A stretch of DNA of 64,000 nucleotides from Coraliomargarita sp. (GTDB taxonomy: Bacteria; Verrucomicrobiota; Verrucomicrobiia; Opitutales; Coraliomargaritaceae): contig OZ244160.1 of the NCBI GenBank assembly GCA_965216325.1, positions 416,001 to 480,000 on the forward strand, given 5' to 3'. Position 1 is the first letter of the stretch. Each line of letters opens with the position of its first letter. A program made the translations under genes and the position numbers. The notes under the pieces were generated by a model that was not told where the DNA came from, did not search any database, and saw only the letters and a program-made list of their open reading frames with translations. Positions 8,083 through 61,187 of this stretch are shown here, piece after piece.

Positions 8083-8130
8083 ACACGGTCGATTGGCCGT
8101 ATTGACCGGGCTGTTCGTACTCTCTATAAT
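8083..8130 (+). promoter_or_regulatory. Palindromic operator 1 plus sigma70-like promoter
   Basis: ACACGGTCGATTGGCCGTAT at 8083-8102; -35 TTGACC 8102-8107, 17-bp spacer, -10 TATAAT 8125-8130. Confidence 0.85.
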
Positions 8131-8187
8131 GCAGCGAGTAGTCAAGCATTCGAAAGTTGAGGCAACCTAACCGAGATTAATAATTTA

Positions 8188-8976
8188 GTGATTAAAAGTA
8201 CGAGGCAATCGAACCTGCGCCGACAATGCGGTCTTTTTAGAGCTGCCCTGATGCTTAAGAAATACGGGATTCTGTCCGCCTGTTTCTGCCTGCTACAAAC
8301 CGGTCAAGCGATGGAGATGCCCCCCAAAGTCTTGACCCCAGATGGCAAAGCACCGAGCGATGCGACCGTGGTCTTTTCCGGCGGCAGCAAGGAGGCTCTC
8401 GTCAATGGAGCTGGGGAGCGCCTGGGCTGGCCGGTTCAGGACGATGCACTGATCGTCAATGGTGAGATCGGTGCCTATACCAAACTCCATTTTTCGGATG
8501 CGCAAATCCATGTCGAGTTTGCTTGTCCGAACGACGGCAAGCAAGGTGAAAGTGCCGGTAATAGTGGACTGTACATTCACGGGCTCTACGAGCTTCAAAT
8601 TTACAACTCCTACGACCAGAAGATCAAACCCTCGGCGATGCTTGGTGCGATCTACGGACAGTACATCCCGCCAGTTAATGTGGCTCGGCCCGCCGAACAG
8701 TGGCAGGTGTATGATATCATTTTTCACGCCCCGCGGCGCAACGAAGCGGGGCAGGTGAGTGAGCCGGGACGTTTGACGGCCTTTCTCAATGGTGTGCTGC
8801 TGTACGATAACGTGGAAATCAAAGAGCCCACAGTATATGGCCCACTCCATCACCAACCGACGCCATATTCCAAGGAATTATATGACAAGATCAAGAAGAC
8901 CGGGTGTGGGCCGCTATTCTTTCAGGATCACCATAGCCCGGTTCGCTTTCGGAATATTTGGATCCGAACTTTGTAA
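8188..8976 (+). CDS. DUF1080 (3-keto-disaccharide hydrolase-like) protein
   Basis: APSDATVVFSG, QIHVEF, GNSGLY, YELQI, WQVYDIIF, FQDHHSPVRFRNIW. True start may be 8251. Confidence 0.88.
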   Translation: MIKSTRQSNLRRQCGLFRAALMLKKYGILSACFCLLQTGQAMEMPPKVLTPDGKAPSDATVVFSGGSKEALVNGAGERLGWPVQDDALIVNGEIGAYTKLHFSDAQIHVEFACPNDGKQGESAGNSGLYIHGLYELQIYNSYDQKIKPSAMLGAIYGQYIPPVNVARPAEQWQVYDIIFHAPRRNEAGQVSEPGRLTAFLNGVLLYDNVEIKEPTVYGPLHHQPTPYSKELYDKIKKTGCGPLFFQDHHSPVRFRNIWIRTL

Positions 8977-9119
8977 TGAGGCGCTTCGCGGTGCTTACAG
9001 AACAGACGCGCGAGCCTCTGGAGGCATGGATGAAACAACAGGGGGACGACGGTGCATCGACTAACAATAAGGGTAGTAAAGCCCATTAATTAAACATACA
9101 TTTACTGCAACCATACACG

Positions 9120-12175: not shown

Positions 12176-12176
12176 A

Positions 12177-17142: not shown

Positions 17143-17428
17143 GCGGCAGCCTACTACAGTTCACCGACTCGAGTGATTCACTGCTATTTTTGGCAACTTT
17201 CACGCTCGCACCCCCGCCTGAACACGGCCGATTGGCCGTATTGCCAGTCTGTTTCTGGTCCTTTAAACTGCATGCAGTTTCAGCTAATAGTCTCTGATTT
17301 AACAGGCTCAGCACCACCACTTGTTGCACCTAAATTATCATAATAATGAAAAGAATATCCAAATTATTTCCGGTCGTTGCCCTTTTTACCGGCCTTAGCC
17401 TCTGCACGACGCATGCCGTCGATGTGAT
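16592..17428 (+). repeat. Direct repeat, copy 1 (C-terminal module, intergenic region, operator/promoter, signal peptide); copy 2 at 18982-19806
   Basis: Near-identical DNA from GTCACCCAAAGGTAAAG to GCCGTCGATGTGAT; 12-bp indel near 17311. Confidence 0.95.
17222..17269 (+). promoter_or_regulatory. Palindromic operator 2 plus promoter
   Basis: ACACGGCCGATTGGCCGTAT at 17222-17241; -35 TTGCCA, 17 bp, -10 TAAACT. Confidence 0.8.
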
Positions 17429-19611: not shown

Positions 19612-19659
19612 ACACGGCCGATTGGCCGTGTTGCCAGACTGTTTCTGGTCCTTTATACT
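19612..19659 (+). promoter_or_regulatory. Palindromic operator 3 plus promoter
   Basis: ACACGGCCGATTGGCCGTGT at 19612-19631; -35 TTGCCA, 17 bp, -10 TATACT. Confidence 0.82.
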
Positions 19660-21885: not shown

Positions 21886-21933
21886 GCACGGTTGATTGAC
21901 CGTGTATGCAGGAATGTTTTCTTTTGTTAGCAT
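21886..21933 (+). promoter_or_regulatory. Palindromic operator 4 plus promoter
   Basis: GCACGGTTGATTGACCGTGT at 21886-21905; -35 TATGCA, 17 bp, TGn-TAGCAT. Confidence 0.78.
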
Positions 21934-24789: not shown

Positions 24790-24836
24790 ACACGGTCGAT
24801 TGGCCGTGTTGTCGGCTGCCCTTTATCTGCTATTAT
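24790..24836 (+). promoter_or_regulatory. Palindromic operator 5 plus promoter
   Basis: ACACGGTCGATTGGCCGTGT at 24790-24809; -35 TTGTCG, 16 bp, TGn-TATTAT. Confidence 0.8.
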
Positions 24837-29453: not shown

Positions 29454-29500
29454 ACACGGTCGATTGACCGTGTTTACATGATGATTTTTTTAGATATAGT
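29454..29500 (+). promoter_or_regulatory. Palindromic operator 6 plus promoter
   Basis: ACACGGTCGATTGACCGTGT at 29454-29473; -35 TTTACA, 16 bp, -10 TATAGT. Confidence 0.82.
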
Positions 29501-38215: not shown

Positions 38216-38863
38216 TTAGATCATACCCTTGCGAATGCCGGCCGCGACAGCCGCTGCGACGTTGGGGACTTGTAGCTTTTTATAGATGCTTTCGGTGTAT
38301 TGCGATATCGTTCGATAACTGACATCCATGCGTTCGGCGACTTCTTTTTTAACATAGCCCATCGCCAATAACTCGAGCACTTGTAGTTCTCGCTTGGTGA
38401 GGACATTTTCATCATCGACTTCAGTGTTGCCACTGAGTGCCTTCAACACAATTTTTGAAAGCTGCGGGTCAATGATGCAGTGACCTTGGTGAAGCTCGGC
38501 GATGGCCTCGCGGATCGATGCGATGGGCGAGTCCTTAAGTAGATAGCCAGCGACTCCCAGCCGGATGGCTTCAATGGTGGTGTGGTAGTTATTGTTCTGA
38601 GTGAGTATCAGGATATTCGCCTCCGGCAGCTCCTTGCGTATGATCGGGACTAACTGAAGGCCGCTTTTTTCCGGTAGGTTCAGGTCTAAAAGGACGATGT
38701 CGATGACTTGGTTACAATTATCATTGAGGGTCTCCAGGAAGTCTTCTGCGCTGTTATAGCTCGCAACAAATTCCATTTGCTCGGAGACTGAAATCATCGT
38801 TTGCAATGACTGGGTGTATTGAGGGTTATCCTCGATGATTAATATTTTGATGGTTTCTGACAT
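38216..38863 (-). CDS. NarL/FixJ family response regulator (REC plus LuxR HTH)
   Basis: ILIIEDN, VLLDLNLP, GYLLKDS, LTKRELQVLELLAMG...IYKKLQV. Confidence 0.95.
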   Translation of the reverse strand: MSETIKILIIEDNPQYTQSLQTMISVSEQMEFVASYNSAEDFLETLNDNCNQVIDIVLLDLNLPEKSGLQLVPIIRKELPEANILILTQNNNYHTTIEAIRLGVAGYLLKDSPIASIREAIAELHQGHCIIDPQLSKIVLKALSGNTEVDDENVLTKRELQVLELLAMGYVKKEVAERMDVSYRTISQYTESIYKKLQVPNVAAAVAAGIRKGMI

Positions 38864-41114: not shown

Positions 41115-41162
41115 ACACGGTTGATTGACCGTGTTTACAGGAAGGATGCTTTTCGGCATTAT
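41115..41162 (+). promoter_or_regulatory. Palindromic operator 7 plus promoter, in the divergent TCS/sulfatase intergenic region
   Basis: ACACGGTTGATTGACCGTGT at 41115-41134; -35 TTTACA, 17 bp, -10 CATTAT. Confidence 0.8.
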
Positions 41163-45814: not shown

Positions 45815-45863
45815 ACACGGTCAATTGACCGTGTTGACGGCATTGTTTTTTTTTTGCTAGACT
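45815..45863 (+). promoter_or_regulatory. Palindromic operator 8 (perfect 28-bp palindrome at 45811-45838) plus promoter with a T10 spacer tract
   Basis: GTCAACACGGTCAATTGACCGTGTTGAC; -35 TTGACG, 18 bp, TGn-TAGACT. Confidence 0.85.
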
Positions 45864-45939
45864 GTTATCTACTGTTATCTACAGTTGCGAAGATGAATTG
45901 AATCTTCGGCCTTGTAAATCAAACCCCTGAAAACAAAAT

Positions 45940-46689: not shown

Positions 46690-46732
46690 TTTTTCATATT
46701 AAGGGATAATATATAATAGGGATATATAGGGT

Positions 46733-46769
46733 AAAGCCCCTCGCAGTTCAGCTGTGAGGGGCTTTTTTT
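46733..46769 (+). terminator. Rho-independent terminator (identical copy at 48187-48223)
   Basis: AAAGCCCCTCGCAG-loop-CTGTGAGGGGCTTTTTTT. Confidence 0.85.
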
Positions 46770-47157: not shown

Positions 47158-47211
47158 GTGTTTTTAGGGACAGGCTATAAAAGTGTTTTTAGGGACAGGC
47201 TATAAAAAGAG
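47158..47211 (+). repeat. Two copies of the GGGACAGG junction motif
   Basis: GTGTTTTTAGGGACAGGCTATAA x2, directly before a duplicated segment. Confidence 0.9.
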
Positions 47212-47213
47212 CC

Positions 47214-47524
47214 CCGACGGCCAGGTCTCCTGCGTGGTTGAAAGCGTGAAAGCGCAGGACATCAAATTCTACGGTGCACCAAACACCAAGCCACTGAATT
47301 TTAAAGCCGCTGCCGGAACCACTCAAGTATCGCTAAGCTGGGACTGACCCTCGGGGCAACACGGTCAATTGACCGTGTTGACGGCATTGTTTTTTTTTTT
47401 GCTAGACTGTTATCTACAGTTGCGAAGATGAATCGAATCTTCGGCCTTATAAATCAAACCCCTGAAAACAAAATATGCCTACTAAGCATCTAATTACACT
47501 CTCTCTCGCAACTATCGGCCTCGC
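47214..47524 (+). repeat. Copy of 45670-45989 (3' end of the GH63-like gene, operator/promoter, first 17 codons)
   Basis: Near-identical DNA. Confidence 0.92.
47359..47408 (+). promoter_or_regulatory. Palindromic operator 9 plus promoter with a T11 spacer tract
   Basis: ACACGGTCAATTGACCGTGT at 47359-47378; -35 TTGACG, 19 bp, TGn-TAGACT. Confidence 0.82.
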
Positions 47525-48634: not shown

Positions 48635-49110
48635 TAATACCGATAATAATACCGATTCGCAAAGGTTTGACCTGATAGGCACCACCCCGTCTCGCTTTGC
48701 GATCCACCCCTCCTCGTCAAGGAGGGGAGCTAAAGAAGCTCCTCCCCTGCGAAGGGGAGGTCATCCCGCTAGCGGGATGGGAGGGGTATTTTAGCCCAGG
48801 AGTGTTTTTAGGGACAGGAGTGTTTTTAGGGACAAAGTGTTTTTAGGGACAGGCTATAATAATACCGATAATAATACCGATTCGCAAAGGTTTGACCTGA
48901 TAGGCACCACCCCGTCTCGCTTTGCGATCCACCCCTCCTCGTCAAGGAGGGGAGCTAAAGAAGCTCCTCCCCTGCGAAGGGGAGGTCATCCCGCTAGCGG
49001 GATGGGAGGGGTATTTTAGCCCAGGAGTGTTTTTAGGGACAGGAGTGTTTTTAGGGACAGGAGTGTTTTTAGGGACAGAGTGTTTTTAGGGACAGGCTAT
49101 AAAAAGAGTC
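48612..49110 (+). repeat. Tandem ~225-bp units of a REP-like hairpin pair bracketed by 8 GGGACAG motif copies; partial third copy at 52247-52421
   Basis: Units at 48612-48836 and 48837-49061, followed by short motif repeats. Confidence 0.9.
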
Positions 49111-49296
49111 CGGCCTTTTTTGGTTCTTCGTCAATTCATCGAGCATCTTCAACATTTCACCGTGCGGATAATTGCCGACCGAGGTGTAAGCTCCATGGCC
49201 CTTTAAGGATGGCAAAGACGTCAAACGGTCCAACACTTCATATCCGAACTTAGATTCCACCATCTCAAGGAATTCTGTGAACACCAAACCTTTCAT
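49110..49296 (-). pseudogene. Truncated heme-NO-binding (HNOB/H-NOX) domain gene
   Basis: MKGLVFTEFLEMVESKFG...AYTSVGNYPHGEM; truncated after about 55 aa near the repeat. Confidence 0.8.
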
Positions 49297-49662
49297 GAGG
49301 ACTGAGGCTATTGTAGTTTTTACAGGTTGAAGCGCGTCGGATGCTGTAATTTTTACACAAACACGATGGAGAACCGCTAGATAGAATTAGATAAAAAAAC
49401 CTCATATGCCTGCATATCAGCTACTTGGGTGATAATAAAACAAAATTGGCATGGCGCATGATATAAGTCTAGCATGGCCAAAACTACTCCTACCCCGATC
49501 TCTGCGATTCCGCATATTGTCCAAGCGTCGGCATCATTGATGGTGACTCCACAGCAGCCGCATTAATGCGATTCGTTCCTCCTTGTTGCTAATATATTGT
49601 AAATTGCAACGTAATTGTCAGGTCTACGACCTGAAAATACAAAACACGACACTACACCCCCA

Positions 49663-50457
49663 ATGCCCAAAAAAATGAAATCAAACTATAAAATCAACCT
49701 GACCGCCGCCACTCTGATCGCGCTAGGTTCCTTCGCATCCGTTCGTGCTGCTGTTGTCACTTGGGACGGCGATGCAGCGGACGGACAATGGGGCACCGCC
49801 ACGAACTGGGACAGTGATGCTGCACCCGCGGCTGGCGACGACGTGAACATTGCGAACGGGGATGCCGTCAATATTACCGGAAACATTCTGGCAAGTGGTC
49901 TCAACATCACCCTCAGCGGTGGCTCGAATTTATCGTATACAGGTATTAGTGGTGCTTTTCAGTTTAACTTGAATGGTGCCACGATTGCAGTCGGCTCAGG
50001 CTCTACCCTTAACGGCGGGACTACTAGAATGTGGGGCACTTCCAAACTGGTCTTCGATGACGGGGCAGATTTTAACGGCACTATGGAGTTCAGGGACTTT
50101 AGTGATGATGGCCCTGACTTACAGTTTAATCTCGGAGCAACCGGCTTCACGACCGTTGAAGCTGGTGGCTTGGGGTTCTGGTCTGGCGATAACTTATCAA
50201 TTGTGGACTTCACCGTCGACCTTACGAACTACTCCGGCGGAGCGGATACGATCACCCTGATCGACTGGAATGGTAGCGGTAGCGCGAGTCAAGCCTTGCT
50301 CGATGCTGCCACTCAAACCTTCATCGGGGGATCTGCTAATCTTTTATGGGATGATGCTAACAATGCCATCCAGCTGAGTATCGTCCCCGAGCCCGGCACC
50401 TATGCGCTGCTGGCTGGCCTGACAGGCCTCGTCTTCGTAATGATACGTCGCCGCTAG
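49663..50457 (+). CDS. PEP-CTERM sorting domain protein (TWDG...W-type core)
   Basis: Signal peptide; VTWDGDAADGQWGTATNW; tail VPEPGTYALLAGLTGLVFVMIRRR. Start is 49663 or 49675. Confidence 0.9.
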   Translation: MPKKMKSNYKINLTAATLIALGSFASVRAAVVTWDGDAADGQWGTATNWDSDAAPAAGDDVNIANGDAVNITGNILASGLNITLSGGSNLSYTGISGAFQFNLNGATIAVGSGSTLNGGTTRMWGTSKLVFDDGADFNGTMEFRDFSDDGPDLQFNLGATGFTTVEAGGLGFWSGDNLSIVDFTVDLTNYSGGADTITLIDWNGSGSASQALLDAATQTFIGGSANLLWDDANNAIQLSIVPEPGTYALLAGLTGLVFVMIRRR

Positions 50458-50544
50458 GTTCTGAGCTTATTTTCGAATGCTAGTCGATTCGAAGGGCTGC
50501 AAGGTGACGGAATGATTTTTTCATATAGGGTTACCTATTAGGGT

Positions 50545-50577
50545 AAAGGCCGCGCTTGGGGAGCGCGGCCTTTTTTT
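50545..50577 (+). terminator. Rho-independent terminator (copy at 51889-51921)
   Basis: AAAGGCCGCGCT-TGGGG-AGCGCGGCCTTTTTTT. Confidence 0.85.
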
Positions 50578-51079
50578 GGTTCTTCGTCAATTATCGTGAA
50601 AGGGATAGCAAGGAAGCGGGATTGAAGTTCATAGAGCTTCTTCGAGATTTTCAGTGGATGCGTGCACTGTTAGGCGTTGAAGGCCTTCTGAGGGCACAGA
50701 GCACCCAAGGGGGTGGGTGGTTTAAATAACTCCTTCCCGGCAGGGAAGGTGGATCGTGACTTGTCCGCCGTAGCTCGACACGTCCGCCGTAGCTTCTGAG
50801 CGAAGGAGGAAGAGCGAAGGAGGAAGCGAGACGGCATGCGCGCCGTAGCCTTGGCGTAGGAGTGAAGGGTTCTCTGACCGAGCCTAGGCAGATTTTTGCT
50901 CCGGCTGGCTCAAATAACAGTAAAAACCCCTCCGTCCCCGCAGACGGGGCCACCTCCCCTTCGCAGGGGAGGAGCTATTAATTGCCCAATAATCACGTAA
51001 AATGGAAGATTCAAAGATGTGTGTTTTTAGGGGCAGGCTATAAAAAGAGTCGCTAAGCTGGGACTGACCCCTCGGGGCG

Positions 51080-51126
51080 ACACGGTCAATTGACCGTGTT
51101 GACGGAATTCCTTTTTCTGCTACTAT
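51080..51126 (+). promoter_or_regulatory. Palindromic operator 10 plus promoter
   Basis: ACACGGTCAATTGACCGTGT at 51080-51099; -35 TTGACG, 16 bp, TGn-TACTAT. Confidence 0.83.
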
Positions 51127-51194
51127 GAATGAGATTTTAGATTAATAAGGTTGTTATCGCCCTAAAATACAAAACCCGATAAATATATTAAAAT

Positions 51195-51800
51195 ATGAAA
51201 AAATTACACACCCTTACAGTAATCGCAGCCTTCGGCCTCAGCGCCCTCTCGGCCCAAGCGTCCATCGTCCTGCCTGACGCTGGAAACTCAGTTACTTTTG
51301 AGGCAGAAGCCTATGATGCGGAATCGGGCACTGTAATTGTAGCCGATGCTACTAATGCATCAGGTGGCTTTTATGTCGACAGCCTTGCTGCCTCGGCGGC
51401 TGGTGGTGGTAATGGTGACTTTATCAGCTTTAACATCAGTAACCTAGACACCGCGCTGACTTATGAAATTACTTTTAATTACCGTAATAACTCCAACGTC
51501 GGAGATAAGTCTACGGAGTGGGAATTTTATGGAGTGACGGGTGGCTCCACTTACACATTGCTAACGTCGATCGTTGCTCCATCTACCGGTGCTTGGAGTG
51601 GTCCTTTTTTCGAAGCGCCCACATCTACTGGCTTCAATATCGCTGCAGGCACGACCGCCATTCAGGTGGAAAACCTTACTGCTGGTAACTTTTCTCACCT
51701 TGACTCTTTCACGATTTCGGCGATCCCCGAGCCCGGCACCTATGCGCTGCTGGCTGGCCTGACAGGCCTCGTCTTCGTAATGATACGTCGCCGCCGCTAG
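51195..51800 (+). CDS. PEP-CTERM protein with a CBM6/35-like core
   Basis: VTFEAEAY...ASGGFYV; tail DNA near-identical to that of 49663..50457 (50384-50683 vs 51724-52027). Confidence 0.9.
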   Translation: MKKLHTLTVIAAFGLSALSAQASIVLPDAGNSVTFEAEAYDAESGTVIVADATNASGGFYVDSLAASAAGGGNGDFISFNISNLDTALTYEITFNYRNNSNVGDKSTEWEFYGVTGGSTYTLLTSIVAPSTGAWSGPFFEAPTSTGFNIAAGTTAIQVENLTAGNFSHLDSFTISAIPEPGTYALLAGLTGLVFVMIRRRR

Positions 51801-52943
51801 GTTCTGAGCTTATTTTCGAATGCTTGTCGATTCGACGGGCTGCAAGGTGACGGAATGATTTTTTTCATATAGGGTCACCTATTAGGGTAAAGGCCGCGCT
51901 TGGGGAGCGCGGCCTTTTTTTGGTTCTTCGTCAATTATCGTGAAAGGGATAGCAAGGAAGCGGGATTGAAGTTCATAGAGGTTCTTCGAGATTTTCAGTG
52001 GATGCTTGCACTGTTAGGCGTTCAAGGCACTTCAGCTTTGGTTACGTGGCTTTTAACCACCGATGACTCCGATGACCACCGATTGCTTTGCTTCAGTCGC
52101 ACTCGTCTCTGTGCGCATCGGTGTGATCGGTGGTTCGTCAATGCACTTCTGCGTCGGTGGCTTCCTTTAGGCCGCCACCCCGTAGGTCAGGGGGGGGGGG
52201 GGGTAGACAGTGGGAGTCTGGTACCCAGGTGCCCAAGCTGTTTTTAGTGTTTTCAGGGACAGGCTATAATAATACCGATTCGCAAAGGTTTGACCTGATA
52301 GGCACCACCCCGTCTCGCTTCGCGATCCACCCCTCCTCGTCAAGGAGGGGAGCTAAAGAAGCTCCTCCCCTGCGAAGGGGAGGTCATCCCGCTAGCGGGA
52401 TGGGAGGGGTATTTTAGCCCAGACCTTTATTGAACTGGTATAAGAATCCAGCGGAGCTGGAGACCGCTTATTCCCGCTTATGGACGCTTATTTTTAAGAT
52501 TTAAATTCTGAGGCACGTCGTGCTGGATAAGCGTAAATTAGCGTTCATAAGCGGTTAAAAAAATCTGGGTTCATTTCTTCTGCAGGCTGTTTTTAGTGTT
52601 TTTAGGGACAGGCTATAATAAGAGTCTTCTTAATTCCGTTTTTTGTTCACAACCGCTACGCTAGCACCCAAGGGCATAATAAAGGGCCCTTCCTCCTTCG
52701 CTATGCAAGCTACGGCGGACATGCCGGGCGAGGATGGGGAGTATACATTGCTGTGGCATTCTTTTCCTAAACTCCTTCCCTTGCGCAAGCGGTTGTAAAA
52801 AATTACGTAGCCTCAGTCAAAGAAGCTTAGTGCGAAGCCCGCTAAATCAGTGGTTCTATGCACCCACTCCCCAGTAAATGACGATGAACCTAAAAAGAGC
52901 CCGGAACATCTCGAAGAACCACGTGGGACTGATACGACAAGGG

Positions 52944-52990
52944 GCACGGTCGATTGACCGTGTTTACAGTATTTTGTTTTCTGCTAATGT
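52944..52990 (+). promoter_or_regulatory. Palindromic operator 11 plus promoter
   Basis: GCACGGTCGATTGACCGTGT at 52944-52963; -35 TTTACA, 16 bp, TGn-TAATGT. Confidence 0.8.
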
Positions 52991-53064
52991 GAGGTGCGCT
53001 GGTATGAAGAGGCGGTCTTCGACCTGAGGATACAAAACACGACGCTCCCCCTGAAAGCTAAAAG

Positions 53065-53907
53065 ATGAGATCTAAATTAGAAATATACATGCAAGCCGCC
53101 GCCACTCTGATCGTGGCAGGAGCATTCGCATCCGTTCATGCTGTTACAGTCACTTGGGATGGCAGTGAAGGCGACCGCGAATGGGGCACCGCCGCGAACT
53201 GGGATCCTGCAGCGCCCGGGAATGGCGACGACGTGATCATTGGGAATGGGGACACCGTCAACATTACCGGAAAAATTCTGACGAGTAATCTCAACATCAT
53301 CCTCAGCGGTGGCTCAGATTTAACCTATACGGGCGCAAAGGGTGCTGCTCAGTTTGACATGGAAAGCGCCTCAATTGCTTTCGGCGCAGGCTCAGACCTA
53401 TCATTGGCTGGAACCATCAGGATCTCGAACAGTGCCAGTCTGGCGTTTGACGATGGGGCTACGCTCGGTGGGGCTGTGGATATGGAGTTCCGAGAGAGCA
53501 GTGCTGGCCTACAGTTTAATCTCGGAGCCACTGGCTTCACGACCATTACACCTGGTGGTTTGAACTTCTGGAATGACTCTGATGAATTCTGGAATTTATC
53601 AAACATAAACTTCACCGTCGACTTTGCGAATTATACCGGCGAATCGGGGACGATCACCTTGATCGACTGGGACACTGACATGAAAGACGCCAATACCACA
53701 CAAGCCCTGCTGGATGCGGCCACCCAAAATTTTATTAATGCCGCCGGCTACGAAAACATTGTTCTCACCTGGGATGAGGACGCGACTGCCATCAACCTGA
53801 GCTTCGACACCGACGACACCGTCGACATTCCCGAGCCATCCTATCTCGCTGCGCTCCTTGGACTGCTTGGGGCTTTTGCTGTGATCCTGCGCAGGCAGCG
53901 TAGCTAG
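53065..53907 (+). CDS. PEP-CTERM protein, paralog of the 49663..50457 core with a different tail
   Basis: VTWDG...WGTAANW, LQFNLGATGFTT, QALLDAATQ; tail IPEPSYLAALLGLLGAFAVILRRQRS. Confidence 0.9.
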   Translation: MRSKLEIYMQAAATLIVAGAFASVHAVTVTWDGSEGDREWGTAANWDPAAPGNGDDVIIGNGDTVNITGKILTSNLNIILSGGSDLTYTGAKGAAQFDMESASIAFGAGSDLSLAGTIRISNSASLAFDDGATLGGAVDMEFRESSAGLQFNLGATGFTTITPGGLNFWNDSDEFWNLSNINFTVDFANYTGESGTITLIDWDTDMKDANTTQALLDAATQNFINAAGYENIVLTWDEDATAINLSFDTDDTVDIPEPSYLAALLGLLGAFAVILRRQRS

Positions 53908-54224
53908 AACAGCTGGAAGGGCCGCCTTGCGGCTATTCCTGGCTCTACCGAATATATATTACGGCCTAGCAGCCCGTCGGACTGGAGTGTCCTTCCTGCA
54001 ATCGTCGTTTTTTACCTCTTCTCCAGAATCTGAGGGTATGACTCAGTAGAATCGCCATCTATGCCAGTGCGCTAGAGCGGGGGAGATTGGGAGGGAGGCT
54101 TTGTTCATCCTAAAAAGATGAGTCATGGAACCTATTAATGGCTTCGCCATTTTGGTGGATAAGTGTGCTCTTTGCTTTCACTGAACTACCTTAACTCATT
54201 TTTTAGGTTGAATGGGCTGCCACC

Positions 54225-54443
54225 TCATCCAGCTTGAACGCCAAACGTGAGGCTGAGATCAATGGTTCCTGCTGCACCCGTGTTGTCGATGAAGTTGCTG
54301 ATGGAGTTGCCTCCTGCGCTGGTCATGTTGTTCCAGTTGCCAGAAGTTGTGCCCGCGACGTCAGAGAAGTCGATCAACGACGTGGCTGCACTTGCAAAGC
54401 CGGCCGTCGCGATGAAGGTGGCGATTGTAATCGTTTTGTATAA
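54225..54443 (-). pseudogene. Start-less remnant of a secreted (PEP-CTERM-like) gene
   Basis: Minus strand reads LYKTITIATFIATAGFASAATSLIDFSDVAGTTSGNWNN...GVQAG*; no ATG; directly downstream of operator 12. Confidence 0.65.
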
Positions 54444-54462
54444 TACCCCCCCAGAAACCTCA

Positions 54463-54482
54463 ACACGGTCATTTGACCGTGT
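54463..54482 (-). promoter_or_regulatory. Palindromic operator 12 (30-bp near-perfect palindrome at 54458-54487)
   Basis: CCTCAACACGGTCATTTGACCGTGTTGAGG; no properly spaced -10 on either side. Confidence 0.75.
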
Positions 54483-54507
54483 TGAGGGGTGTTTTTCTGC
54501 GAGCGTG

Positions 54508-55383
54508 TTACTTTTGAATTTGCCACTCCGGCTGGGCTAACGCATCGGTCTCTCCTTGGAGATCGCCGGCGGCAAATTGGATCCCATTCAGCCATAATTG
54601 AAGCATGTCTGGATCCCAGCACAGGTGATCATTATGGCCAAAGGCCGAGATGAACACATGACCTTGGCCGAACTTTTTCACCCAGGTCAGGGCGTGGTCA
54701 TTGTCCCGGCGTTGGTTGTTTGCTGGCGAGACCCGCGTATCCACAGTCATCAAGACTCTTTGCTTCTGACGATCGTATTCTTTGTATTTATACAATTCGT
54801 CTGAAATCTTAAAGGTGGTTTGCGGGTAGTGATCGACACAGCAGTGCTGCGGGTCGTCGATACTGATTCCATAGGTTCCTTTTTGATTCCATGGGTGACC
54901 ATCAAAGACGCCACCCACGAGTTCGACATATTCCGGCCATTCTGGATGCCCCGCATCGGTGGCACCATGGATGGCGACAAAGCCTCCACCATTTTTAATG
55001 AAATCAAGAATGGCATTACGGGATTCCGGTGTTTGAAAGGCCTTCTGAAGCTTTGTGGTATTATTAAAAATCAGCAGGTCATAGTTTTTCAGCTTCTCTG
55101 CGGTGAAGTCTTCGGCCTGATCGGAAAAGTCTGCGGTAAATGCCCCTGTTTCCTTGCCCATGATGTCTAAGCATACATTTATGGTTGGAATAGACCCGTG
55201 GCGATAACCTGAAGCTTTGTAATAGACCAGCGCCTTGCGGGGCGTCTCTAACTGGACCTTGGCTTGGATGTCCATGGCCTGCGTGATTTGTTCACGATGC
55301 TTGTCGTTGAAGGGTCCTTGAGCTGCATATCCAGTCGTGATCGACAGGGAAATTAGTAGTGCGATGATTTTAATTTTCTTCAT
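54508..55383 (-). CDS. ThuA-like domain protein
   Basis: GYRHGSIP, YDLLIFNNTT, GGGFVAIHGA, GGVFDGHPW, DELY, GHVFISAFGH. Confidence 0.88.
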   Translation of the reverse strand: MKKIKIIALLISLSITTGYAAQGPFNDKHREQITQAMDIQAKVQLETPRKALVYYKASGYRHGSIPTINVCLDIMGKETGAFTADFSDQAEDFTAEKLKNYDLLIFNNTTKLQKAFQTPESRNAILDFIKNGGGFVAIHGATDAGHPEWPEYVELVGGVFDGHPWNQKGTYGISIDDPQHCCVDHYPQTTFKISDELYKYKEYDRQKQRVLMTVDTRVSPANNQRRDNDHALTWVKKFGQGHVFISAFGHNDHLCWDPDMLQLWLNGIQFAAGDLQGETDALAQPEWQIQK

Positions 55384-55414
55384 ATTGGTTCTTTTGTTAT
55401 ATTTCTGAGTGATC

Positions 55415-57406
55415 TTAAAAGTCGCCCTTTGGGAATAGCGTGGTCCGCAGTAAGGTGGCGCCTGAGGGTTCGAGTGTGAGTTCTACTTGCGCACTCTCCA
55501 CTTCGAGTGTGGTGGGGAAATCCGTGGCAATCGCACCTGGATTCAGTCCCCATGCTTGATCGCCTTGACCGAGCGCCCAGTTGGTCACTTTTCGGGCGGG
55601 CACGTTGATCTGAATGGGGGATTGCCCGGCATCCCATGGATACCCCTGTGTCGGTGATTGGATGACTGTTATGTCGTCTGGGGTGAGCGTTGAGGAAAGC
55701 GCATAGGCCCAACCCACAGGATTCACCGGTAGGTATTGATAGGCCGGAAACTGAGGGCTTGCTTTACCCGCTGGAGAGTCCGTGGTGACGATCTGCTTGG
55801 CAGGTACGGGATAGGAGAAAACCAGAGGGCCATAATTGATCGCCTGACCACGGCCAATGCGGTCGATGACGGGTGCTGCCTCAAACGCGATTGCCACTTG
55901 ATCGCCGGCTTTGAAGACTCGCTTCAGTTCCGCAAAAAAGCTGCTTTCTTTGCCGCTAAGGATCGTTTTGCCGTTTAGGTTGATACTGTAGGATTCTGCC
56001 CAGCCGGGAACTCTGAGTGCCAGGGTGATCTCATTGGCTGGCGCATGATCGATTGCGATATTCACCGTGTGCTCAAAAGGATAATTGGTTTTCTGAGTGA
56101 GGGTCAGTTTGCCTTGTGGCATCGGTAGCTCGACCGTGCTTGGCAGGTAGAGTGCGACACTGGCACGATCGCCTTCGACCAGGCACATACGGTTGAGGAA
56201 GGTGGGGAACATACGGTGCACATTCCCGGTGCAGCACTCGGTATCATGGCCGGGGCGGTAACACATGCGACCTTGCCCCAGCTTGCCCCAACCGGAGTCA
56301 TTATTATAGAAACTGGAGTCGTTTCTGCTGATGGGGACATTGGGGGTGCCGTAGTATTGGTGCGCCTTAAAATCGCTGGTGATGGAGCCAAATCCGGCGT
56401 TGTAGAGCACCTTCTCCATTTTATCCGCATACTTGGCATCTCCAGTCGCGAGCAAGGCATAGCCGGCACTCCAGTTGAAGTCGATGGCATTGCAGAGTTC
56501 GTGTGCTTGAATGGGGCTTTTGCCGCTTAATTCCTCAGTTGCGCTCGATAAGCCACATGCCAATTCATGTTGTTCGCTGAGCATCTCGAACGCGCGCTCG
56601 AATCCTTTGCGGTAGATCTCTTTGCCTGTAGCAGTGTAGAGAATCGCGGGAAGCTTTAGGAATTCGTGGTAGGTAACCGCGTGTCCTTCCGGATCGACAC
56701 CCTCCGCCATGCCCTGAGCCATCACCGTCGCGAGAGCGGGGCCTGCTGTTTGGTAAAGACGTTCTGCTGCGTCGGTGTAAAACCTGTCCTTGGTGATTTC
56801 AGCCAAGGCACACAGGTGCTCAACATGGAGCAAAGAACGGGCCTTGAAACTGAGTCGATCGATCTGGGGAAAACTGGCGTCACGACTGTAAACGGCGCGA
56901 TAGTGTTTTTGGATGGCAGCAAGCAGTTCCGCATCTTGGGTGTTTGCATACTCCTCAAATAAGATGCGCATAAAGACCACCATCGGCCACCAGTCATTCT
57001 CGATTTTATCGGCTCTGAGGGTTCCGTCCGCATCGGCATGATCCAGCACATAACGGATATTTTTTCGGACTCTTTCGAGCATCTCTGGCGACTGATTGAT
57101 ATAGCCGCAGCGCAGTGCGCCATCGAGATAATAACCGGTCTGCTCATAGGGCCACCATCCTGATCCATATTGGCCGAACTCGCGGTCTGCGACGTCCATG
57201 GGGCCGGTCCACATGCCGGTGTTGAACGGATAGCCACTCTGCTCCGGGTGACCGGTGAGGCCGTCCTCCTGACGCTTTATAAATTCCTTGGCCCAACCGT
57301 GAAGTCGAATGGAGCTGCTGGCTAGGTCATGCCGTTTGATCACCATCGGTTTATTCGCGGTATCGGAGTCATTGGCCACAGCATTGTCACCTATAATGAG
57401 GCACAT
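55415..57406 (-). CDS. GH127/GH146-like (beta-L-arabinofuranosidase-domain) glycoside hydrolase
   Basis: WWPYEQTGYYLDG, GHAVTY, HELCNAID, EKVLYNA, ECCTGN, QKTNYPF, LRVPGWA, YGPLVF. 5' end possibly frameshifted from ATG 57483. Confidence 0.85.
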   Translation of the reverse strand: MCLIIGDNAVANDSDTANKPMVIKRHDLASSSIRLHGWAKEFIKRQEDGLTGHPEQSGYPFNTGMWTGPMDVADREFGQYGSGWWPYEQTGYYLDGALRCGYINQSPEMLERVRKNIRYVLDHADADGTLRADKIENDWWPMVVFMRILFEEYANTQDAELLAAIQKHYRAVYSRDASFPQIDRLSFKARSLLHVEHLCALAEITKDRFYTDAAERLYQTAGPALATVMAQGMAEGVDPEGHAVTYHEFLKLPAILYTATGKEIYRKGFERAFEMLSEQHELACGLSSATEELSGKSPIQAHELCNAIDFNWSAGYALLATGDAKYADKMEKVLYNAGFGSITSDFKAHQYYGTPNVPISRNDSSFYNNDSGWGKLGQGRMCYRPGHDTECCTGNVHRMFPTFLNRMCLVEGDRASVALYLPSTVELPMPQGKLTLTQKTNYPFEHTVNIAIDHAPANEITLALRVPGWAESYSINLNGKTILSGKESSFFAELKRVFKAGDQVAIAFEAAPVIDRIGRGQAINYGPLVFSYPVPAKQIVTTDSPAGKASPQFPAYQYLPVNPVGWAYALSSTLTPDDITVIQSPTQGYPWDAGQSPIQINVPARKVTNWALGQGDQAWGLNPGAIATDFPTTLEVESAQVELTLEPSGATLLRTTLFPKGDF

Positions 57407-57618
57407 GTGGTGGGCAGGATGGAGGCGAGTGTCGCACTTGGCCTGAGGAAGCGACGGTGGGGGGATTGGCGTGATGAATGCATGGGGCAGTGGATGAGTG
57501 GTGATGTCAATAGAAGAGAGTAATAATTGGGAGGGGAGGGGGGCTTAGGTAGCTGAGCTGAAGATGGGAGCGTATGGAGGTCTATCTCGAGATCGAAATT
57601 CAGCTCACAGGCGGACAC

Positions 57619-57665
57619 ACAGTAATGAACATTTCAATTCTGTAAACACGGCCAATCGACCGTGT
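57619..57665 (-). promoter_or_regulatory. Palindromic operator 13 plus promoter (minus strand, toward the GH127-like gene)
   Basis: Minus strand ACACGGTCGATTGGCCGTGT at 57665-57646; -35 TTTACA, 16 bp, -10 TACTGT. Confidence 0.8.
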
Positions 57666-57891
57666 ATCGTCATTTTCAGCCCCAAATTGGGGGGGGATTA
57701 TACCACTTGGTGAAACAAACGAGACGAATGACTTGGTAGAACATTTTTTGATACCGCTCATCCCGAACACTCGATGTAGACCGTCTTGGCCAGCGGTGGC
57801 TTCTGGTCGCTGTCAGTCATTAGGGGCAAAAAAAATGGATGGGGCGGTAAGCGGGAAAAGGGGCAAGGATAAGATAACATGGGGCAAAGAG

Positions 57892-57939
57892 ACACGGTCA
57901 TTTGACCGTGTTGTCAGATTTTTTTTTTTATGGTAGTGT
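57892..57939 (+). promoter_or_regulatory. Palindromic operator 14 plus promoter with a T11 spacer tract
   Basis: ACACGGTCATTTGACCGTGT at 57892-57911; -35 TTGTCA, 17 bp, TGn-TAGTGT. Confidence 0.82.
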
Positions 57940-58027
57940 GTATAGACGTTGCACTTTCAATCGTGAATGAACCCTCGTGTGGACCCTGCAGGGTGCTCCT
58001 AAAGTTAAACCAAACACTCGCTAAGGC

Positions 58028-58714
58028 ATGAATAAACTCAATCCAACATCGACAGTCCTTCTGCGCTCGGTCGCGGCGATGGCCGGCATCGTCCTGACCG
58101 CGACCTCGGCCCAAGCGGCGACTATTACATCAGTCGCATTCAACGGCGGCAACGACCAGTCCCAGATCGTCAACACAGGAGGCACCCTCGTGTCAGCCGC
58201 GAACTTTGGCGAAGCGGCGGTCACCATTAATGGGATCGCCCACGCTGCGGGGTCCCTCAATGGAGCCAATCTGACCCTTAACGAAGACTATGAGGGCGCC
58301 TACCGAAACCTTGATTCCGAAGCAGGTGCCACTGGAGCGGGGGCTACTGATGAAATGTTCACTTTGCTCAGCAGCATGGCGGGGTTTAACACCTCGCCCC
58401 TAACTCTGGACATTAGCGGCCTCACTATAGGGCAAGACTACCTTTTCCAGGCGTATTGGGAGGCTAACGCCGGAGAGACACTTTCGGTGAACTTCGAGGG
58501 CGTTACTGCAGACATCGACGATGATATAAAGGGCGTTCTGATCTCGTACACGTTCACCGCAGGCGACGACACGTTTAACGCGACATTTGAAAATGACACT
58601 TCTGGGAATTGGGTACAAGGCTACTCGCTACAAGCCATCCCCGAGCCATCCTCCGCCGCGGCTCTCTTTGGAGTTGTTGGACTTTGTGCTGTGGCCCTGC
58701 GCCGTAGGAAGTAA
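58028..58714 (+). CDS. PEP-CTERM sorting domain protein
   Basis: Signal peptide; tail IPEPSSAAALFGVVGLCAVALRRRK. Confidence 0.92.
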   Translation: MNKLNPTSTVLLRSVAAMAGIVLTATSAQAATITSVAFNGGNDQSQIVNTGGTLVSAANFGEAAVTINGIAHAAGSLNGANLTLNEDYEGAYRNLDSEAGATGAGATDEMFTLLSSMAGFNTSPLTLDISGLTIGQDYLFQAYWEANAGETLSVNFEGVTADIDDDIKGVLISYTFTAGDDTFNATFENDTSGNWVQGYSLQAIPEPSSAAALFGVVGLCAVALRRRK

Positions 58715-58929
58715 GTATCGATCTTAACCAGGGCTCCGGGCAATGATTGTTCGGGCTCACTAAAAGACTTGTAGGCAATCGCACTACAAGTCTTTTTTAT
58801 TGGTGGCATCCTGACCCCATGTCTTGACCGAAGAGAACCACTGATTCAATTCCATGGCACAAGCGAATTCCATGGTGAACGTGCTTGTTATATGATATCC
58901 TTGGGTGCGGATGTCGTTGATGTTTGTGC

Positions 58930-59180
58930 GCGCACCGGCCTGGGAATTCTCCTTGGCGATTCGAAGCACGAGATTCTCTATTTCTTCAGGCTTTTTCTGG
59001 CGTCCGGGGTATTTCCGTTTCTTCGAGCCATCGAATTTACGGGCAATCAGCCTGCGGTGCCACCTGTAGAGCGTGTCGGGTGTCACAATCGTGGCATACC
59101 GCTCAATCGCTTTGCCCAGTTTCTTCGCTTTTTCGGCCAGCTTTATGCGTTGAGCGTCAGTGAAGCGGATGCGCTTTTTG
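58930..59180 (-). mobile_element. Integrase-core (rve-type) transposase remnant
   Basis: KRIRFTDAQRIKLA...IVTPDTLYRWHRRLIARKFDGSKKR..PGR...LVLRIAKEN. Confidence 0.75.
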
Positions 59181-59284
59181 ATTTTGGATTAATTTTTGGC
59201 CATTATGGGGAAGGTGCGGGGATTGGTTGTTAGTGTTTATTAAAATTGACAATATGGCCATTTTTGTAGTTTTTTATAGGCATT

Positions 59285-59608
59285 ATGAAGCGGTCAGTGA
59301 ATTTACTCCCGCGTCAACGCCGTCAATTCACTCAACTCGGTGAACGGTTGAAGTTGGCACGTTTACGTCGCCGCCTCTCGGCTACGCTGGTGGCGGAGCG
59401 AGCTGGTATCAGTAGGGCGACGTTGCACAAGATCGAATTGGGGGATCCCCATGTGGCAATGGGGAGTTACTTTCAAGTTCTCCGAGTTTTAGGTTTGGAG
59501 GCTGATTTTGGACTGTTGGCTTTGGATGATCAAATGGGGCGTAAGCTTCAGGATTTGGATTTGGTTACAAAGAAACGGGCTCCCAGACGAAAGGCTATAA
59601 ATGGCTGA
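59285..59608 (+). CDS. hipB: XRE-family HTH antitoxin (HipB-like)
   Basis: LGERLKLARLRRRLS...VAERAGISRATLHKIELG; overlaps the hipA start. Confidence 0.8.
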   Translation: MKRSVNLLPRQRRQFTQLGERLKLARLRRRLSATLVAERAGISRATLHKIELGDPHVAMGSYFQVLRVLGLEADFGLLALDDQMGRKLQDLDLVTKKRAPRRKAING

Positions 59609-60842
59609 GCGATCTCCGATCTATGTCTATGCGGATTGGCAGGGTCTTGCGGAGCCTGCTTTGATGGGGGTGGTGCATCGTTCCGTAGTACGCGGGGAGG
59701 AAGTGCTTGCGTTTGAGTATGAGCAAGAATGGTTGAAACAGGCAGAAGCCTTGCTGCTTGATCCCCGTCTGCAGCTGGTTCAGGGGCGTCAATACCCCGA
59801 TGCGTCCGGTGTATTGGGTCTTCTGACTGACTCTGCTCCGGATCGCTGGGGGCGGTTGTTGATTCAGCGTCGAGCGGCCTTAGAGAGAGAGCCAACGAGC
59901 TTGCATGAGTCCGACTATGTACTCGCAGTTGCGGATACTTGCCGAATGGGCGGTTTGCGCTTCAAGTTGGATTCGGATGGTGCTTTTCTCGCCGAAGATG
60001 AAGCACTTTCAGTGCCTCCAATGCATATGCTTCGAGAGTTGGAACAGGCGTCTCTTCACTTTGAAGCGGCAGATTCGGAAGACCCGCATTATGTGCAATG
60101 GCTGCAAATGTTGCTCGCTCCGGGTACTTCTCTCGGAGGCGCGCGACCTAAAGCCAGTGTGCTGGATCCCGATGGCAATCTGTGGGTGGCAAAGTTCCCT
60201 AGCCGCAACGACGAATACGATGTCGGAGCATGGGAGGGTGTGGTCACGCAGCTTGCACAGCAGGCTGGACTCAATATCGTGTCTGCCAGAGTGGAAAAAT
60301 TCTCAGGTGCCGGTCGCACTTTTCTGAGTCAGCGCTTTGATCGGCGGGGGCAAAGACGAGTGCATTTCGCTTCGGCAATGTGCCTGTTGGGCTATCAGGA
60401 TGGGGACGGCGCGAAAACCGGAGCCAGCTATCTGGATTTGGTTGATTTAATCGAGCGCTACGGTGCCGATGTGGAAACAGATCTTGCAGAATTGTGGAAG
60501 AGAATCGTGTTCAACATTTGGATACACAACACGGATGATCATTTGCGAAACCATGGTTTTCTGCTCGGGGAATCTGGCTGGAGGCTATCGCCTGCCTATG
60601 ACTTAAACCCTCATCCTTGGGCAGGGGGACTTGCTTTAAATGTGGATGATGTCAGTAATGCATGTGATCTGGATTTAGCCCGGTCGGTCGGGCGCTATTT
60701 TCGACTCTCAGATCGGCAGCAGGCGGCTTATATCAATGAAGTCCGAGAGGCGGTTGCCGGCTGGAATTCTATCGCAGAGAGCATGGGAATCAGTCGTGGA
60801 GAGATCGAGCGAATGCGTGTGGCGTTTGAAACCGGAGGCTGA
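59601..60842 (+). CDS. hipA: HipA family serine/threonine kinase toxin
   Basis: DSAPDRWGR, GTSLGGARPKA, AKFP, RFDR, NTDDHLRNHGF, LSPAYDLNP. Confidence 0.93.
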   Translation: MAERSPIYVYADWQGLAEPALMGVVHRSVVRGEEVLAFEYEQEWLKQAEALLLDPRLQLVQGRQYPDASGVLGLLTDSAPDRWGRLLIQRRAALEREPTSLHESDYVLAVADTCRMGGLRFKLDSDGAFLAEDEALSVPPMHMLRELEQASLHFEAADSEDPHYVQWLQMLLAPGTSLGGARPKASVLDPDGNLWVAKFPSRNDEYDVGAWEGVVTQLAQQAGLNIVSARVEKFSGAGRTFLSQRFDRRGQRRVHFASAMCLLGYQDGDGAKTGASYLDLVDLIERYGADVETDLAELWKRIVFNIWIHNTDDHLRNHGFLLGESGWRLSPAYDLNPHPWAGGLALNVDDVSNACDLDLARSVGRYFRLSDRQQAAYINEVREAVAGWNSIAESMGISRGEIERMRVAFETGG

Positions 60843-61139
60843 ATGCTTTGATGTTCACGGATCCAGGCATGTTTCGCACAGGCCAATCATAGCACGGCGA
60901 ATACTTGCGGTGCCCGTTATCTGAAAATTTAACGCGATGAGTAACTGTTATTGCTACGCCATCTCCGGCAAGCCTACGTCTGCGCTTTGCTGGCAGATGT
61001 GTCGTCGCTATCACTCCTCGGTACTGGGCTATGAACCCAAAAAAAAGGGGGGGCAACCATAAGTCAGGGGCCGCAACACCTGCGATCTCTCTCAAGGAGT
61101 GTTGATTTTAGTCTGTCAAAGGATGGTAGGGGCAGGCGG

Positions 61140-61187
61140 ATACGGTCGATTGACCGTGTTTTCAAGCTGCCCTTTTTCTGCTATCGT
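61140..61187 (+). promoter_or_regulatory. Palindromic operator 15 plus promoter
   Basis: ATACGGTCGATTGACCGTGT at 61140-61159; -35 TTTTCA, 17 bp, TGn-TATCGT. Confidence 0.8.

Follow-up and report, generated by a model that had tools for sequence, protein, structure and literature searches.

A palindromic box in register with the promoters of a 94-kb Coraliomargarita island and its candidate NarL-type two-component regulator

Results and discussion

The box and its distribution

The locus studied here is a 64,000-nucleotide stretch of DNA (hereafter, the window) from a marine verrucomicrobium, Coraliomargarita sp., corresponding to bases 416001-480000 of the single 3,064,510-bp contig (OZ244160.1) of its 3.06-Mb chromosome. 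It carries genes for glycoside hydrolases (GH), sulfatases, oxidoreductases, giant secreted proteins and PEP-CTERM proteins, together with a sensor histidine kinase plus a response regulator, and the spacers between these genes contain repeated copies of a palindromic box, which is the subject of this work. Positions refer to the window unless they are given as genome positions or carry the prefix g, both of which denote genome coordinates. A scan with the pattern ACACGGTCRWTTGACCGTGT, allowing up to three mismatches, returned exactly the 15 positions that had been listed in the original prediction (Table 1). The box is not a random recurrence: the window contains 29 strand-matches versus a mean of 0.02 in 100 dinucleotide-preserving shuffles, none of which reached 29. 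First written as 20 bp, the box has an 18-bp core, CACGGTC-N4-GACCGTG, in which two 7-bp arms flank an A/T-rich center of 4 bp (a 7-4-7 layout, hereafter motif 1).

When the 16 specified positions of the pattern were searched in the whole genome, 22 matches with at most three mismatches were found, and 20 of them fall inside one 94-kb island (genome 402415-496399). The two outliers (genome 88983 and 1922990) have three mismatches each and lack both the A/T-rich center and the promoter arrangement described below; no degenerate box with four or five mismatches and such an arrangement was found in the island. Five island boxes lie beyond the window (genome 402415, 405456, 483517, 489321 and 496399), so that the regulon extends past the window, yet it is confined to this single island. 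All 20 island boxes are intergenic, although the intergenic fraction of the island is only 15.5% (open reading frames, ORFs, of at least 150 aa counted as genes). The claim that every window copy is intergenic holds for 15 of 15 once the likely true gene starts are applied, since each of the long ORFs that seem to run over 21886, 41115 and 61140 offers a signal-peptide-like ATG start at a more downstream position.

Some of the boxed units are recent duplicates of one another (17222/19612, 45815/47359, 61140/g483517 and g402415/g405456), the promoter regions of g402415 and g405456 being themselves duplicated. After removing these duplicates, about 15-16 independent promoter units remain, with an identity of only about 31% between their flanks and up to 2 bits in the columns of the box. 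Given the divergence of these flanks, the box itself is under selection.

The register of the boxes with the promoters

The position of the boxes relative to the promoters is fixed to the base. As originally reported, in 14 of the 15 window copies a -35-like hexamer on the side towards the gene begins with base 20 of the box (TTGACC, TTGCCA, TTTACA, TTGACG, TTGTCA, TTGTCG, TTTTCA and, once, TATGCA), and a TAnnnT hexamer follows 16-19 bp further on in 13 of 15, the exceptions being 41115 (CATTAT) and 54463 (none); the -10 element is preceded by TG in 8 of 15. The 14 hexamers match TTGACA at five of six positions in 10 cases, at four in 3 and at three in 1 (21886). The promoters face the adjacent gene, including the GH127-like gene on the minus strand, and the orphan copy at 54463 lies between convergent gene ends. 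The non-facing sides of the boxes mostly score 3/6 or less for a -35. Three boxes, g402415, its duplicate g405456 and g496399, have a -35 on both sides, and since at g402415 and g496399 there are also genes on both sides, one box serves two divergent promoters in these cases.

A strict test, requiring a -35 of at least 4/6 from base 20 and then TAnnnT after 16-19 bp, was passed by 17 of the 22 gene-facing units versus 51 of 7429 control T positions (0.7%) from intergenic DNA of the same island. For a 17-bp spacer, the center of the box would lie near -44.5 relative to the start predicted from the -35 and -10 elements, a register kept in those 17 units. A generic promoter scan of positions 41000-60999 found 16 sites versus 17.5 expected; consensus matches alone are therefore uninformative, and only the fixed register with the box is informative.

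Table 1 Boxes of the window and the candidate regulatory pair. Promoters are given as -35 hexamer, spacer length in bp and -10 hexamer, TG marking an extended -10; L165 and L166 are two metagenome contigs from relatives; TM, transmembrane segment
Feature	Position	Strand	Promoter	Genes faced or predicted domains
Box ACACGGTCGATTGGCCGTAT	8083..8102	+	TTGACC-17-TATAAT	DUF1080 (3-keto-disaccharide hydrolase), GH95, beta-helix/PDZ protein, sulfatase
Box	17222..17241	+	TTGCCA-17-TAAACT	728-aa GH29 fucosidase
Box	19612..19631	+	TTGCCA-17-TATACT	586-aa GH29 fucosidase; duplicate of the 17222 unit
Box	21886..21905	+	TATGCA (weak -35)-17-TG-TAGCAT	sulfatase, likely true start near 22061
Box	24790..24809	+	TTGTCG-16-TG-TATTAT	GFO/IDH/MocA oxidoreductase with twin-arginine translocation (TAT) signal, DUF1080 protein, 335-aa protein
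Perfect box	29454..29473	+	TTTACA-16-TATAGT	2712-aa secreted repeat protein
Box	41115..41134	+	TTTACA-17-CATTAT	sulfatase and GH63/MGH1-like hydrolase; box and -35 kept in L165 and L166
Perfect box	45815..45834	+	TTGACG-18-TG-TAGACT	249-aa PEP-CTERM protein; kept in L165
Perfect box	47359..47378	+	TTGACG-19-TG-TAGACT	222-aa PEP-CTERM protein
Perfect box	51080..51099	+	TTGACG-16-TG-TACTAT	201-aa PEP-CTERM protein
Box	52944..52963	+	TTTACA-16-TG-TAATGT	280-aa protein, sub-threshold PEP-CTERM family match only
Orphan box	54463..54482		no usable -10	between convergent gene ends; 13-bp arms, T-rich tail
Box	57646..57665	-	TTTACA-16-TACTGT	GH127-like gene and ThuA
Perfect box	57892..57911	+	TTGTCA-17-TG-TAGTGT	228-aa PEP-CTERM protein
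Box	61140..61159	+	TTTTCA-17-TG-TATCGT	2064-aa secreted repeat protein, likely true start near 61264
Response regulator, 215 aa, candidate box-binding protein	38216..38863	-		receiver and GerE/LuxR-type helix-turn-helix (HTH), NarL family
Sensor histidine kinase, 655 aa	38867..40834	-		signal/TM, periplasmic tandem CBM32/discoidin-like region (about 25-430), second TM, HisKA_3, HATPase_c

The candidate regulator and its kinase

Two minus-strand genes in mid-island encode a sensor kinase and, 3 bp further downstream, a response regulator. The regulator matches PF00072 (1.6e-21) and PF00196 (5.6e-15), both above the cut-off, and aligns over its full length with the NarL structure 1a04 (E = 3.6e-23) as well as with the structures of VraR, DesR and DevR. 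In the HMMER alignment, D60 (in LLDLN) falls on the aspartate of the LLDLN of NarL, which is the NarL phosphorylation site; the acidic pocket is conserved as well, E11-D12 being matched to DD and K110 to K. Its domain content and sequence place this protein in the NarL/FixJ family. Its Pfam matches include no autoinducer-binding domain and, beside the GerE HTH, no sigma-54 activation domain; the possibility that the pair corresponds to the PEP-CTERM-associated, sigma-54-dependent PrsK/PrsR was rejected on the latter grounds. Dimeric GerE-type HTH proteins are the kind of protein that reads inverted repeats of 18-20 bp. Five proteins with this HTH are encoded in the whole genome, and a Pfam search of 34 + 28 called genes, which cover the island with its borders, plus 65 small or unannotated ORFs found no other regulator in the island save a HipB-type antitoxin, the small ORFs adding to its HTH a single sub-threshold HTH_32 fragment.

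The periplasmic part of the kinase (residues 25-445) was modeled with AlphaFold2 from a 19-sequence alignment. The model (mean pLDDT 89.7, pTM 0.87) shows a pair of beta-sandwich domains, after which a long helix runs into the membrane. Foldseek retrieved 48 Protein Data Bank chains at E of 0.001 or less, led by 8ayr (a CBM32-bearing Akkermansia fucosidase/sialidase entry) and by 7jfs and 7jnb (the tandem CBM32 of ZmpB), and also including the single CBM32 modules 2j1e and 4lpl, the F-lectin 3cqo and the discoidin pairs of neuropilin and factor VIII. The probability reported by Foldseek was 1.00 for 7jnb, 8ayr, 2j1e (TM-score 0.60 on the target) and 4lpl (root-mean-square deviation of 2.9 over 129 columns). 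The predicted sensor fold is therefore a tandem CBM32/discoidin-like beta-sandwich, and we infer from the model that the kinase senses a carbohydrate. The paralogous kinase described below has a weak Pfam match to an F5/8-type-C family (PF22633).

Conservation in metagenome contigs of relatives

A protein search found metagenomic kinases 81-83% identical to that of the island, and two Joint Genome Institute contigs carrying them (L165 and L166) were analyzed. In L165, orthologues of the sulfatase (76% identity), the GH63-like protein (89%), the kinase (82%) and the regulator (83%) occur in the same order; in L166 the corresponding values are 84% for a partial sulfatase, 81% for the kinase and 82% for the regulator. 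Boxes with 0-2 mismatches are present at the sites orthologous to 41115 (both contigs) and 45815 (L165). In a three-way alignment of the spacer between kinase and sulfatase, the longest conserved block is the box with its TTTACA, in a spacer that is otherwise largely diverged or gapped (mean column identity 57%). Similarly, at the second site the box, TTGACGG, a T-run and TGCTA are conserved between the window and L165.

A second motif around the paralogous pair

The genome encodes just one further kinase of this family (genome 2405503-2407494), with 25% identity to that of the island, and its adjoining NarL-type regulator (genome 2404813-2405499) is 36% identical to the candidate. A blind search for recurrent palindromes around this paralogous pair found a different box with the same 7-4-7 layout, ATCGCAC-N4-GTGCGAT (motif 2). 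All 6 genome matches to it with at most one mismatch lie within 2387333-2419057, and two sites with two mismatches belong to the same cluster. The eight copies are all intergenic and, on the sides that were read, TAnnnT follows 21-22 nt after the 18-bp box; the -35 hexamers of these promoters are poor and their geometry is that of motif 1. The region appears as a second private regulon (genome 2382962-2423178), with eight motif-2 copies around the kinase/regulator pair. Its genes encode a sulfatase, GDSL and SASA esterases and giant proteins of 3247 and 2126 aa, as well as a GH63-like enzyme, an acetyl-xylan-esterase-like protein, a GFO oxidoreductase and a melibiase.

Homologous pairs in other genomes

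Full-length homologues of the kinase were found in 22 of 301 genomes sampled from the phylum (including the source genome), often several per genome, and a NarL-type regulator lies directly downstream at 17 of 19 of the kinase-homologue loci. A de novo search for recurrent palindromes was made at seven such loci. In genome G319, GTCACCT-N4-AGGTGAC has 4 perfect sites, none of them more than 28 kb from one and the same kinase homologue, with TAnnnT 21-23 nt after the box. In genome G154, all 3 perfect copies of CCCGCAC-ATTT-GTGCGGG are on a 32-kb contig that carries two kinase homologues; each is followed at once by TTTACA or TTGTGC, then by TAnnnT after 16-17 nt in two of the three, the third having a weak -10 (GAACAT). 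Taken as an 18-bp core, motif 1 shares the layout of G154 and G319, with the -35 immediately after the core. The same arrangement, built on different boxes, thus occurs around paralogous and homologous pairs. The search found no recurrent palindrome at two loci of genome G006 or at two of genome G135.

Single sites were found post hoc in these two genomes. In G135, whose regulator is 56% identical to the candidate and has a near-identical recognition helix (residues SYRT..QYTE shared), one box, AGACGGCC-AAAC-GTCCGTCT, lies just upstream of the kinase gene and faces an operon of GH127, sulfatase, GFO, DUF1080 and GH2 genes. As there are about 50 such sites in 4.4 Mb, the probability of a chance occurrence in a given 300-bp spacer is about 0.003, before any correction for the small number of loci looked at. 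The single G006 site, TTTTGGTCAATTGACCATAT, lies upstream of the closest kinase homologue and is followed by TTGGCA-17-TG-TAGTAT.

Two other repeats were set aside. The G319 repeat CTCGGATC-N4-GATCCGAG looked specific to its locus but was rejected as an operator: it is a canonical terminator whose stem is extended by GCC and followed, behind plus-strand genes, by a T-run; local recurrence alone is therefore not enough to recognize an operator. The G135 pattern CGGRAAT-N4-ATTYCCG was unspecific as a private box (247 matches versus 55 for the reversed control).

Motif 1 itself, allowing up to three mismatches, had fewer matches overall in G135, G006 and G012 than its reversed control. A scan of a 596-Gb contig collection for the exact pattern gave at least 117 loci in unrelated taxa, each with a single site, where several hundred chance matches were expected, so that this count is uninformative, and among 145 pattern matches from a kinase-based search for related loci in the same collection none was confirmed. 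The density of palindromes is 1.32/kb upstream of 19 kinase homologues versus 0.47/kb in the rest of the loci, a contrast that is no more than suggestive, since intergenic DNA has a different composition.

The island and its target genes

The island is preceded on its left by an ISL3 transposase; on its right it gives way to housekeeping genes (a type II secretion system F protein, L25, peptidyl-tRNA hydrolase, DnaB and BamA). An rve-type integrase and the ISL3 transposase (genome 388852-389772 and 398953-400191) stand at the left border beside a truncated sulfatase ORF, which fits an accessory or mobile island.

Pfam matches bear out the targets originally proposed, namely GH95, GH29, sulfatase, GFO-oxidoreductase/DUF1080, giant secreted-protein and PEP-CTERM genes. 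In the island as a whole, the boxed genes encode two GH127-like proteins (one followed by ThuA), one GH95, two GH29, sulfatases, an aldose epimerase, two GH63/MGH1-like hydrolases (one fused to a sulfatase), five GFO/IDH/MocA oxidoreductases (some with TAT signals), four DUF1080/3-keto-disaccharide hydrolases and a xylose-isomerase-like TIM barrel. They also encode three giant secreted repeat proteins (2712, 2064 and 1819 aa), a beta-helix/PDZ protein, a G8-domain protein, four clear PEP-CTERM proteins, the 280-aa protein with a weak family match and several proteins without any family match. With operon extents taken only from gene order, the 20 boxes would control about 21 transcription units and roughly 45 genes. 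The substrate of the island would be a sulfated, fucose-containing sugar polymer. Among the Pfam matches of its called genes there is neither a SusC-like TonB-dependent transporter nor a SusD-like partner.

GFO/IDH/MocA and DUF1080 genes are paired at several places (window 5512-6930, 8188-8976, 25079-27689 and 54508-55383; genome 402495-404671 and 496470-498837). The set of GFO/IDH/MocA, DUF1080, ThuA and xylose-isomerase-like genes suggests an oxidative (3-keto) cleavage of glycosides, which would be co-controlled with the hydrolases. The two GH127-like genes (genome 400308-402377 and window 55415-57406) are each driven by a minus-side box and appear to be close duplicates, as identical chance sub-matches recur in both.

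The PEP-CTERM units also bear traces of duplication. Canonical intrinsic terminators, identical within each of two pairs and with 13-15-bp stems followed by TTTT, stand after the PEP-CTERM genes (46733-46765/48187-48219 and 50545-50573/51889-51917), so that these units were duplicated along with their terminators. The hairpin CCTCCCCTTCGCAGGGGAGG occurs three times in the PEP-CTERM spacers (48741-48760, 48966-48985 and, on the minus strand, 52364-52383), and a repeat of about 225 bp is visible at 48621/48846. A 75-aa ORF on the minus strand (49069-49296) matches positions 1-59 of the haem-NO-binding (HNOB) domain (E = 9.6e-09) and is probably a gene fragment. Between boxed units, an insertion at 59285-60842 encodes a 107-aa antitoxin with a HipB-type HTH and a 413-aa HipA-like kinase toxin. 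Finally, the gene of a 1245-aa protein (947-4684), which belongs to a long operon starting at box g405456, encodes an N-terminus with weak likeness to Verru_Chthon cassette protein A and to the GspK pseudopilin, both below the cut-off.

The proposed mechanism and its alternatives

The boxes are a real and well-delimited cis-regulatory system. The scenario that we consider probable is that each box is the site of a dimer of the island's NarL-family regulator, and that this regulator and its kinase form a glycan-sensing two-component system that activates a private regulon in a class II-type manner. In that case, the two CBM32/discoidin-like modules of the kinase would probably bind a breakdown product of the sulfated, fucose-containing glycan, the kinase would phosphorylate the regulator at Asp60, and the regulator would dimerize on the boxes, contact RNA polymerase and switch on the promoter. 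In this scenario the binding, the activation, the start sites and the ligand are all inferred. Contact between the dimer and the polymerase is proposed because the end of every box coincides exactly with the start of the -35 hexamer; this single-base register recurs from one independent promoter to the next, on either side of shared boxes and among further members of the family, which argues for a protein-protein contact.

Several observations weigh against this scenario. The link between regulator and box rests on their proximity and on its repetition in paralogues and homologues, and at a second kinase homologue of G006 (contig C11) the palindrome search gave no convincing box. No box clusters were found in 40 relatives, including 3 genomes of the same genus (two of them 76-80% complete), so the island appears accessory. 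Within the window, site 54463 faces no gene, the PEP-CTERM gene at 49615-50457 has a promoter-like site without a box, and the kinase-facing side of box 41115 has no -35-like hexamer, so that autoregulation is not evident. For the sensor, the Foldseek matches are good, though at the level of domains, and the TM-scores of the whole model are low (0.2-0.38), because the relative orientation of the two domains differs. Lastly, the motif-1 promoters have near-consensus -35 hexamers (mostly 5/6) and often an extended -10, and thus look intrinsically strong; repression or dual control by the same regulator therefore stays a live alternative.

In this alternative, the regulator would bind the box as a repressor or dual regulator, blocking the docking of the polymerase or of the C-terminal domain of its alpha subunit, until the glycan signal lifts the block, for example by switching the kinase to a phosphatase mode. 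Classical activator-dependent promoters have poor -35 boxes, and the 5/6 hexamers of most motif-1 units and the TG-extended -10 of many would be unusual for them. Nevertheless, a repressor would not need the single-base register, which holds in 17 of 22 units and also among further members of the family, and the box lies upstream of the core promoter and not over it. Moreover, the motif-2 promoters combine the same geometry with poor -35 hexamers, as in activator-dependent promoters. This reading seems unlikely, if worth keeping in view.

Alternatively, the box could be the operator of a factor encoded elsewhere, or of an unrecognized island protein, the two-component system controlling something else. 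The evidence linking regulator and box is indirect, and several island proteins have no Pfam match. Yet the boxes are confined to the island, L165 and L166 retain the box along with the regulator pair, no DNA-binding domain other than that of the HipB antitoxin and the regulator itself is detectable in the island, and the kinase/regulator family is again paired with a private local palindrome at the second locus and in other genomes. This repeated co-location makes a factor encoded elsewhere less likely, and we regard this explanation too as improbable.

It is very improbable that the palindrome acts as an RNA hairpin (in termination, stabilization or processing) or is a spreading repeat or promoter cassette without a dedicated factor: although the boxes as RNA fold at -7 to -20 kcal/mol and the look-alike G319 repeat is a true terminator, most stems lack a T-run and are followed by the -35 hexamer, variants in the arms (T/C at position 7) are often uncompensated, the island's canonical terminators after PEP-CTERM genes have a different sequence, three boxes lie between divergent genes where there is nothing to terminate, and the unrelated flanks exclude a copied cassette. 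The identification of the boxes with intrinsic terminators was accordingly rejected, with only 3 of 9 boxes in window 41000-60999 passing a lenient scan. The orphan 54463 is among these three and, with its 13-bp arms and T-rich tail, may act as a terminator; as a general function, a role as RNA hairpin is unlikely.

Comparison with known systems

Mechanistically, the system that we favor, activation by the NarL-type pair, is an ordinary one of its family. Palindromic operators of NarL/FixJ regulators next to a -35 include the 20-bp Dos boxes of DevR/DosR in Mycobacterium tuberculosis, the ComA box of Bacillus subtilis and the 7-2-7 sites of NarL. As in these systems, a receiver is joined to a GerE HTH, the kinase is of the HisKA_3 type and one regulator would serve many promoters; likewise, an inverted repeat of 18-20 bp stands against the predicted -35. 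The island differs from them in the sequence of the box, its 7-4-7 spacing and A/T-rich center, in the predicted periplasmic tandem CBM32/discoidin-like sensor, where the others have a four-helix bundle, a GAF domain or membrane segments only, and in its glycan-degrading and surface-protein targets gathered in one 94-kb island of a marine verrucomicrobium.

The comparison with the lux box made in the original prediction is apt, since the DNA-binding domain of the regulator is of the LuxR kind. At LuxR/TraR class II sites, the lux or tra box is a palindrome of 18-20 bp at about -42 to -45, abutting the -35 and read by a GerE-type HTH dimer, as is predicted here. For TraR, one box is common to divergent promoters, and the single boxes between divergent promoters at g402415 and g496399 recall this arrangement. 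Nevertheless, the regulator is not a quorum-sensing LuxR, because it has a phospho-receiver and no autoinducer-binding domain; its signal would come through a kinase and not from a diffusible acyl-homoserine lactone.

The polysaccharide utilization loci (PULs) of Bacteroidota are controlled by hybrid two-component systems, SusR or extracytoplasmic function (ECF) sigma/anti-sigma pairs, with one regulator per locus and many paralogues per genome. The island would resemble them in coupling a glycan-sensing periplasmic domain to adjacent sulfatase and carbohydrate-active enzyme (CAZyme) genes. It differs in its separate kinase and regulator, its GerE-type instead of AraC-type HTH, its CBM32-like sensor instead of a beta-propeller and the absence of SusC/SusD among its called genes, and is accordingly not a PUL of the Bacteroidota type.

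The literature searched, which left most subscription journals and supplements aside, contained no description of the motif, of the regulon or of a CBM32-type sensor kinase, in line with the claim that the motif is undescribed. For Pontiella, the part of PMC10880615 considered here notes that genes for glycoside hydrolases and sulfatases have HisKA_3 kinases and response regulators in their neighborhood, and says no more of these regulators. As for fucoidan, PMC11685898, in the sections covered, mentions regulators only as a criterion for spotting loci, and a word search of PMC13668718 found no mention of two-component, histidine kinase, regulator, promoter or transcription factor.

Conclusions

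How large sets of enzymes for sulfated algal glycans are regulated in Verrucomicrobia and their relatives is not described in the literature searched, and the utilization loci of Verrucomicrobia are hard to delimit because the SusC/D marker is absent. A box that tags about 21 transcription units provides a sequence-based definition of one such regulon. It names a candidate regulator for knock-out or DNA affinity purification sequencing (DAP-seq) and a soluble sensor domain for the screening of oligosaccharides, and the shared control by the box ties PEP-CTERM and giant surface proteins to glycan degradation.

More tentatively, and with somewhat less than an even chance in our estimation, the island's pair could belong to a large and as yet undescribed family in Verrucomicrobiota/Kiritimatiellota that is the counterpart of the hybrid two-component systems and SusR of Bacteroidota, each paralogue answering to one glycan through a tandem CBM32-like sensor and acting on a private 7-4-7 box at the -35 of all its targets. 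In that case, the limits and content of otherwise unrecognizable PULs in these phyla would be readable from DNA, including regulons of 94 kb that link CAZymes, oxidative GFO/DUF1080 genes, PEP-CTERM proteins and giant surface proteins, and the code relating recognition helix to box would be decipherable from the paralogues.

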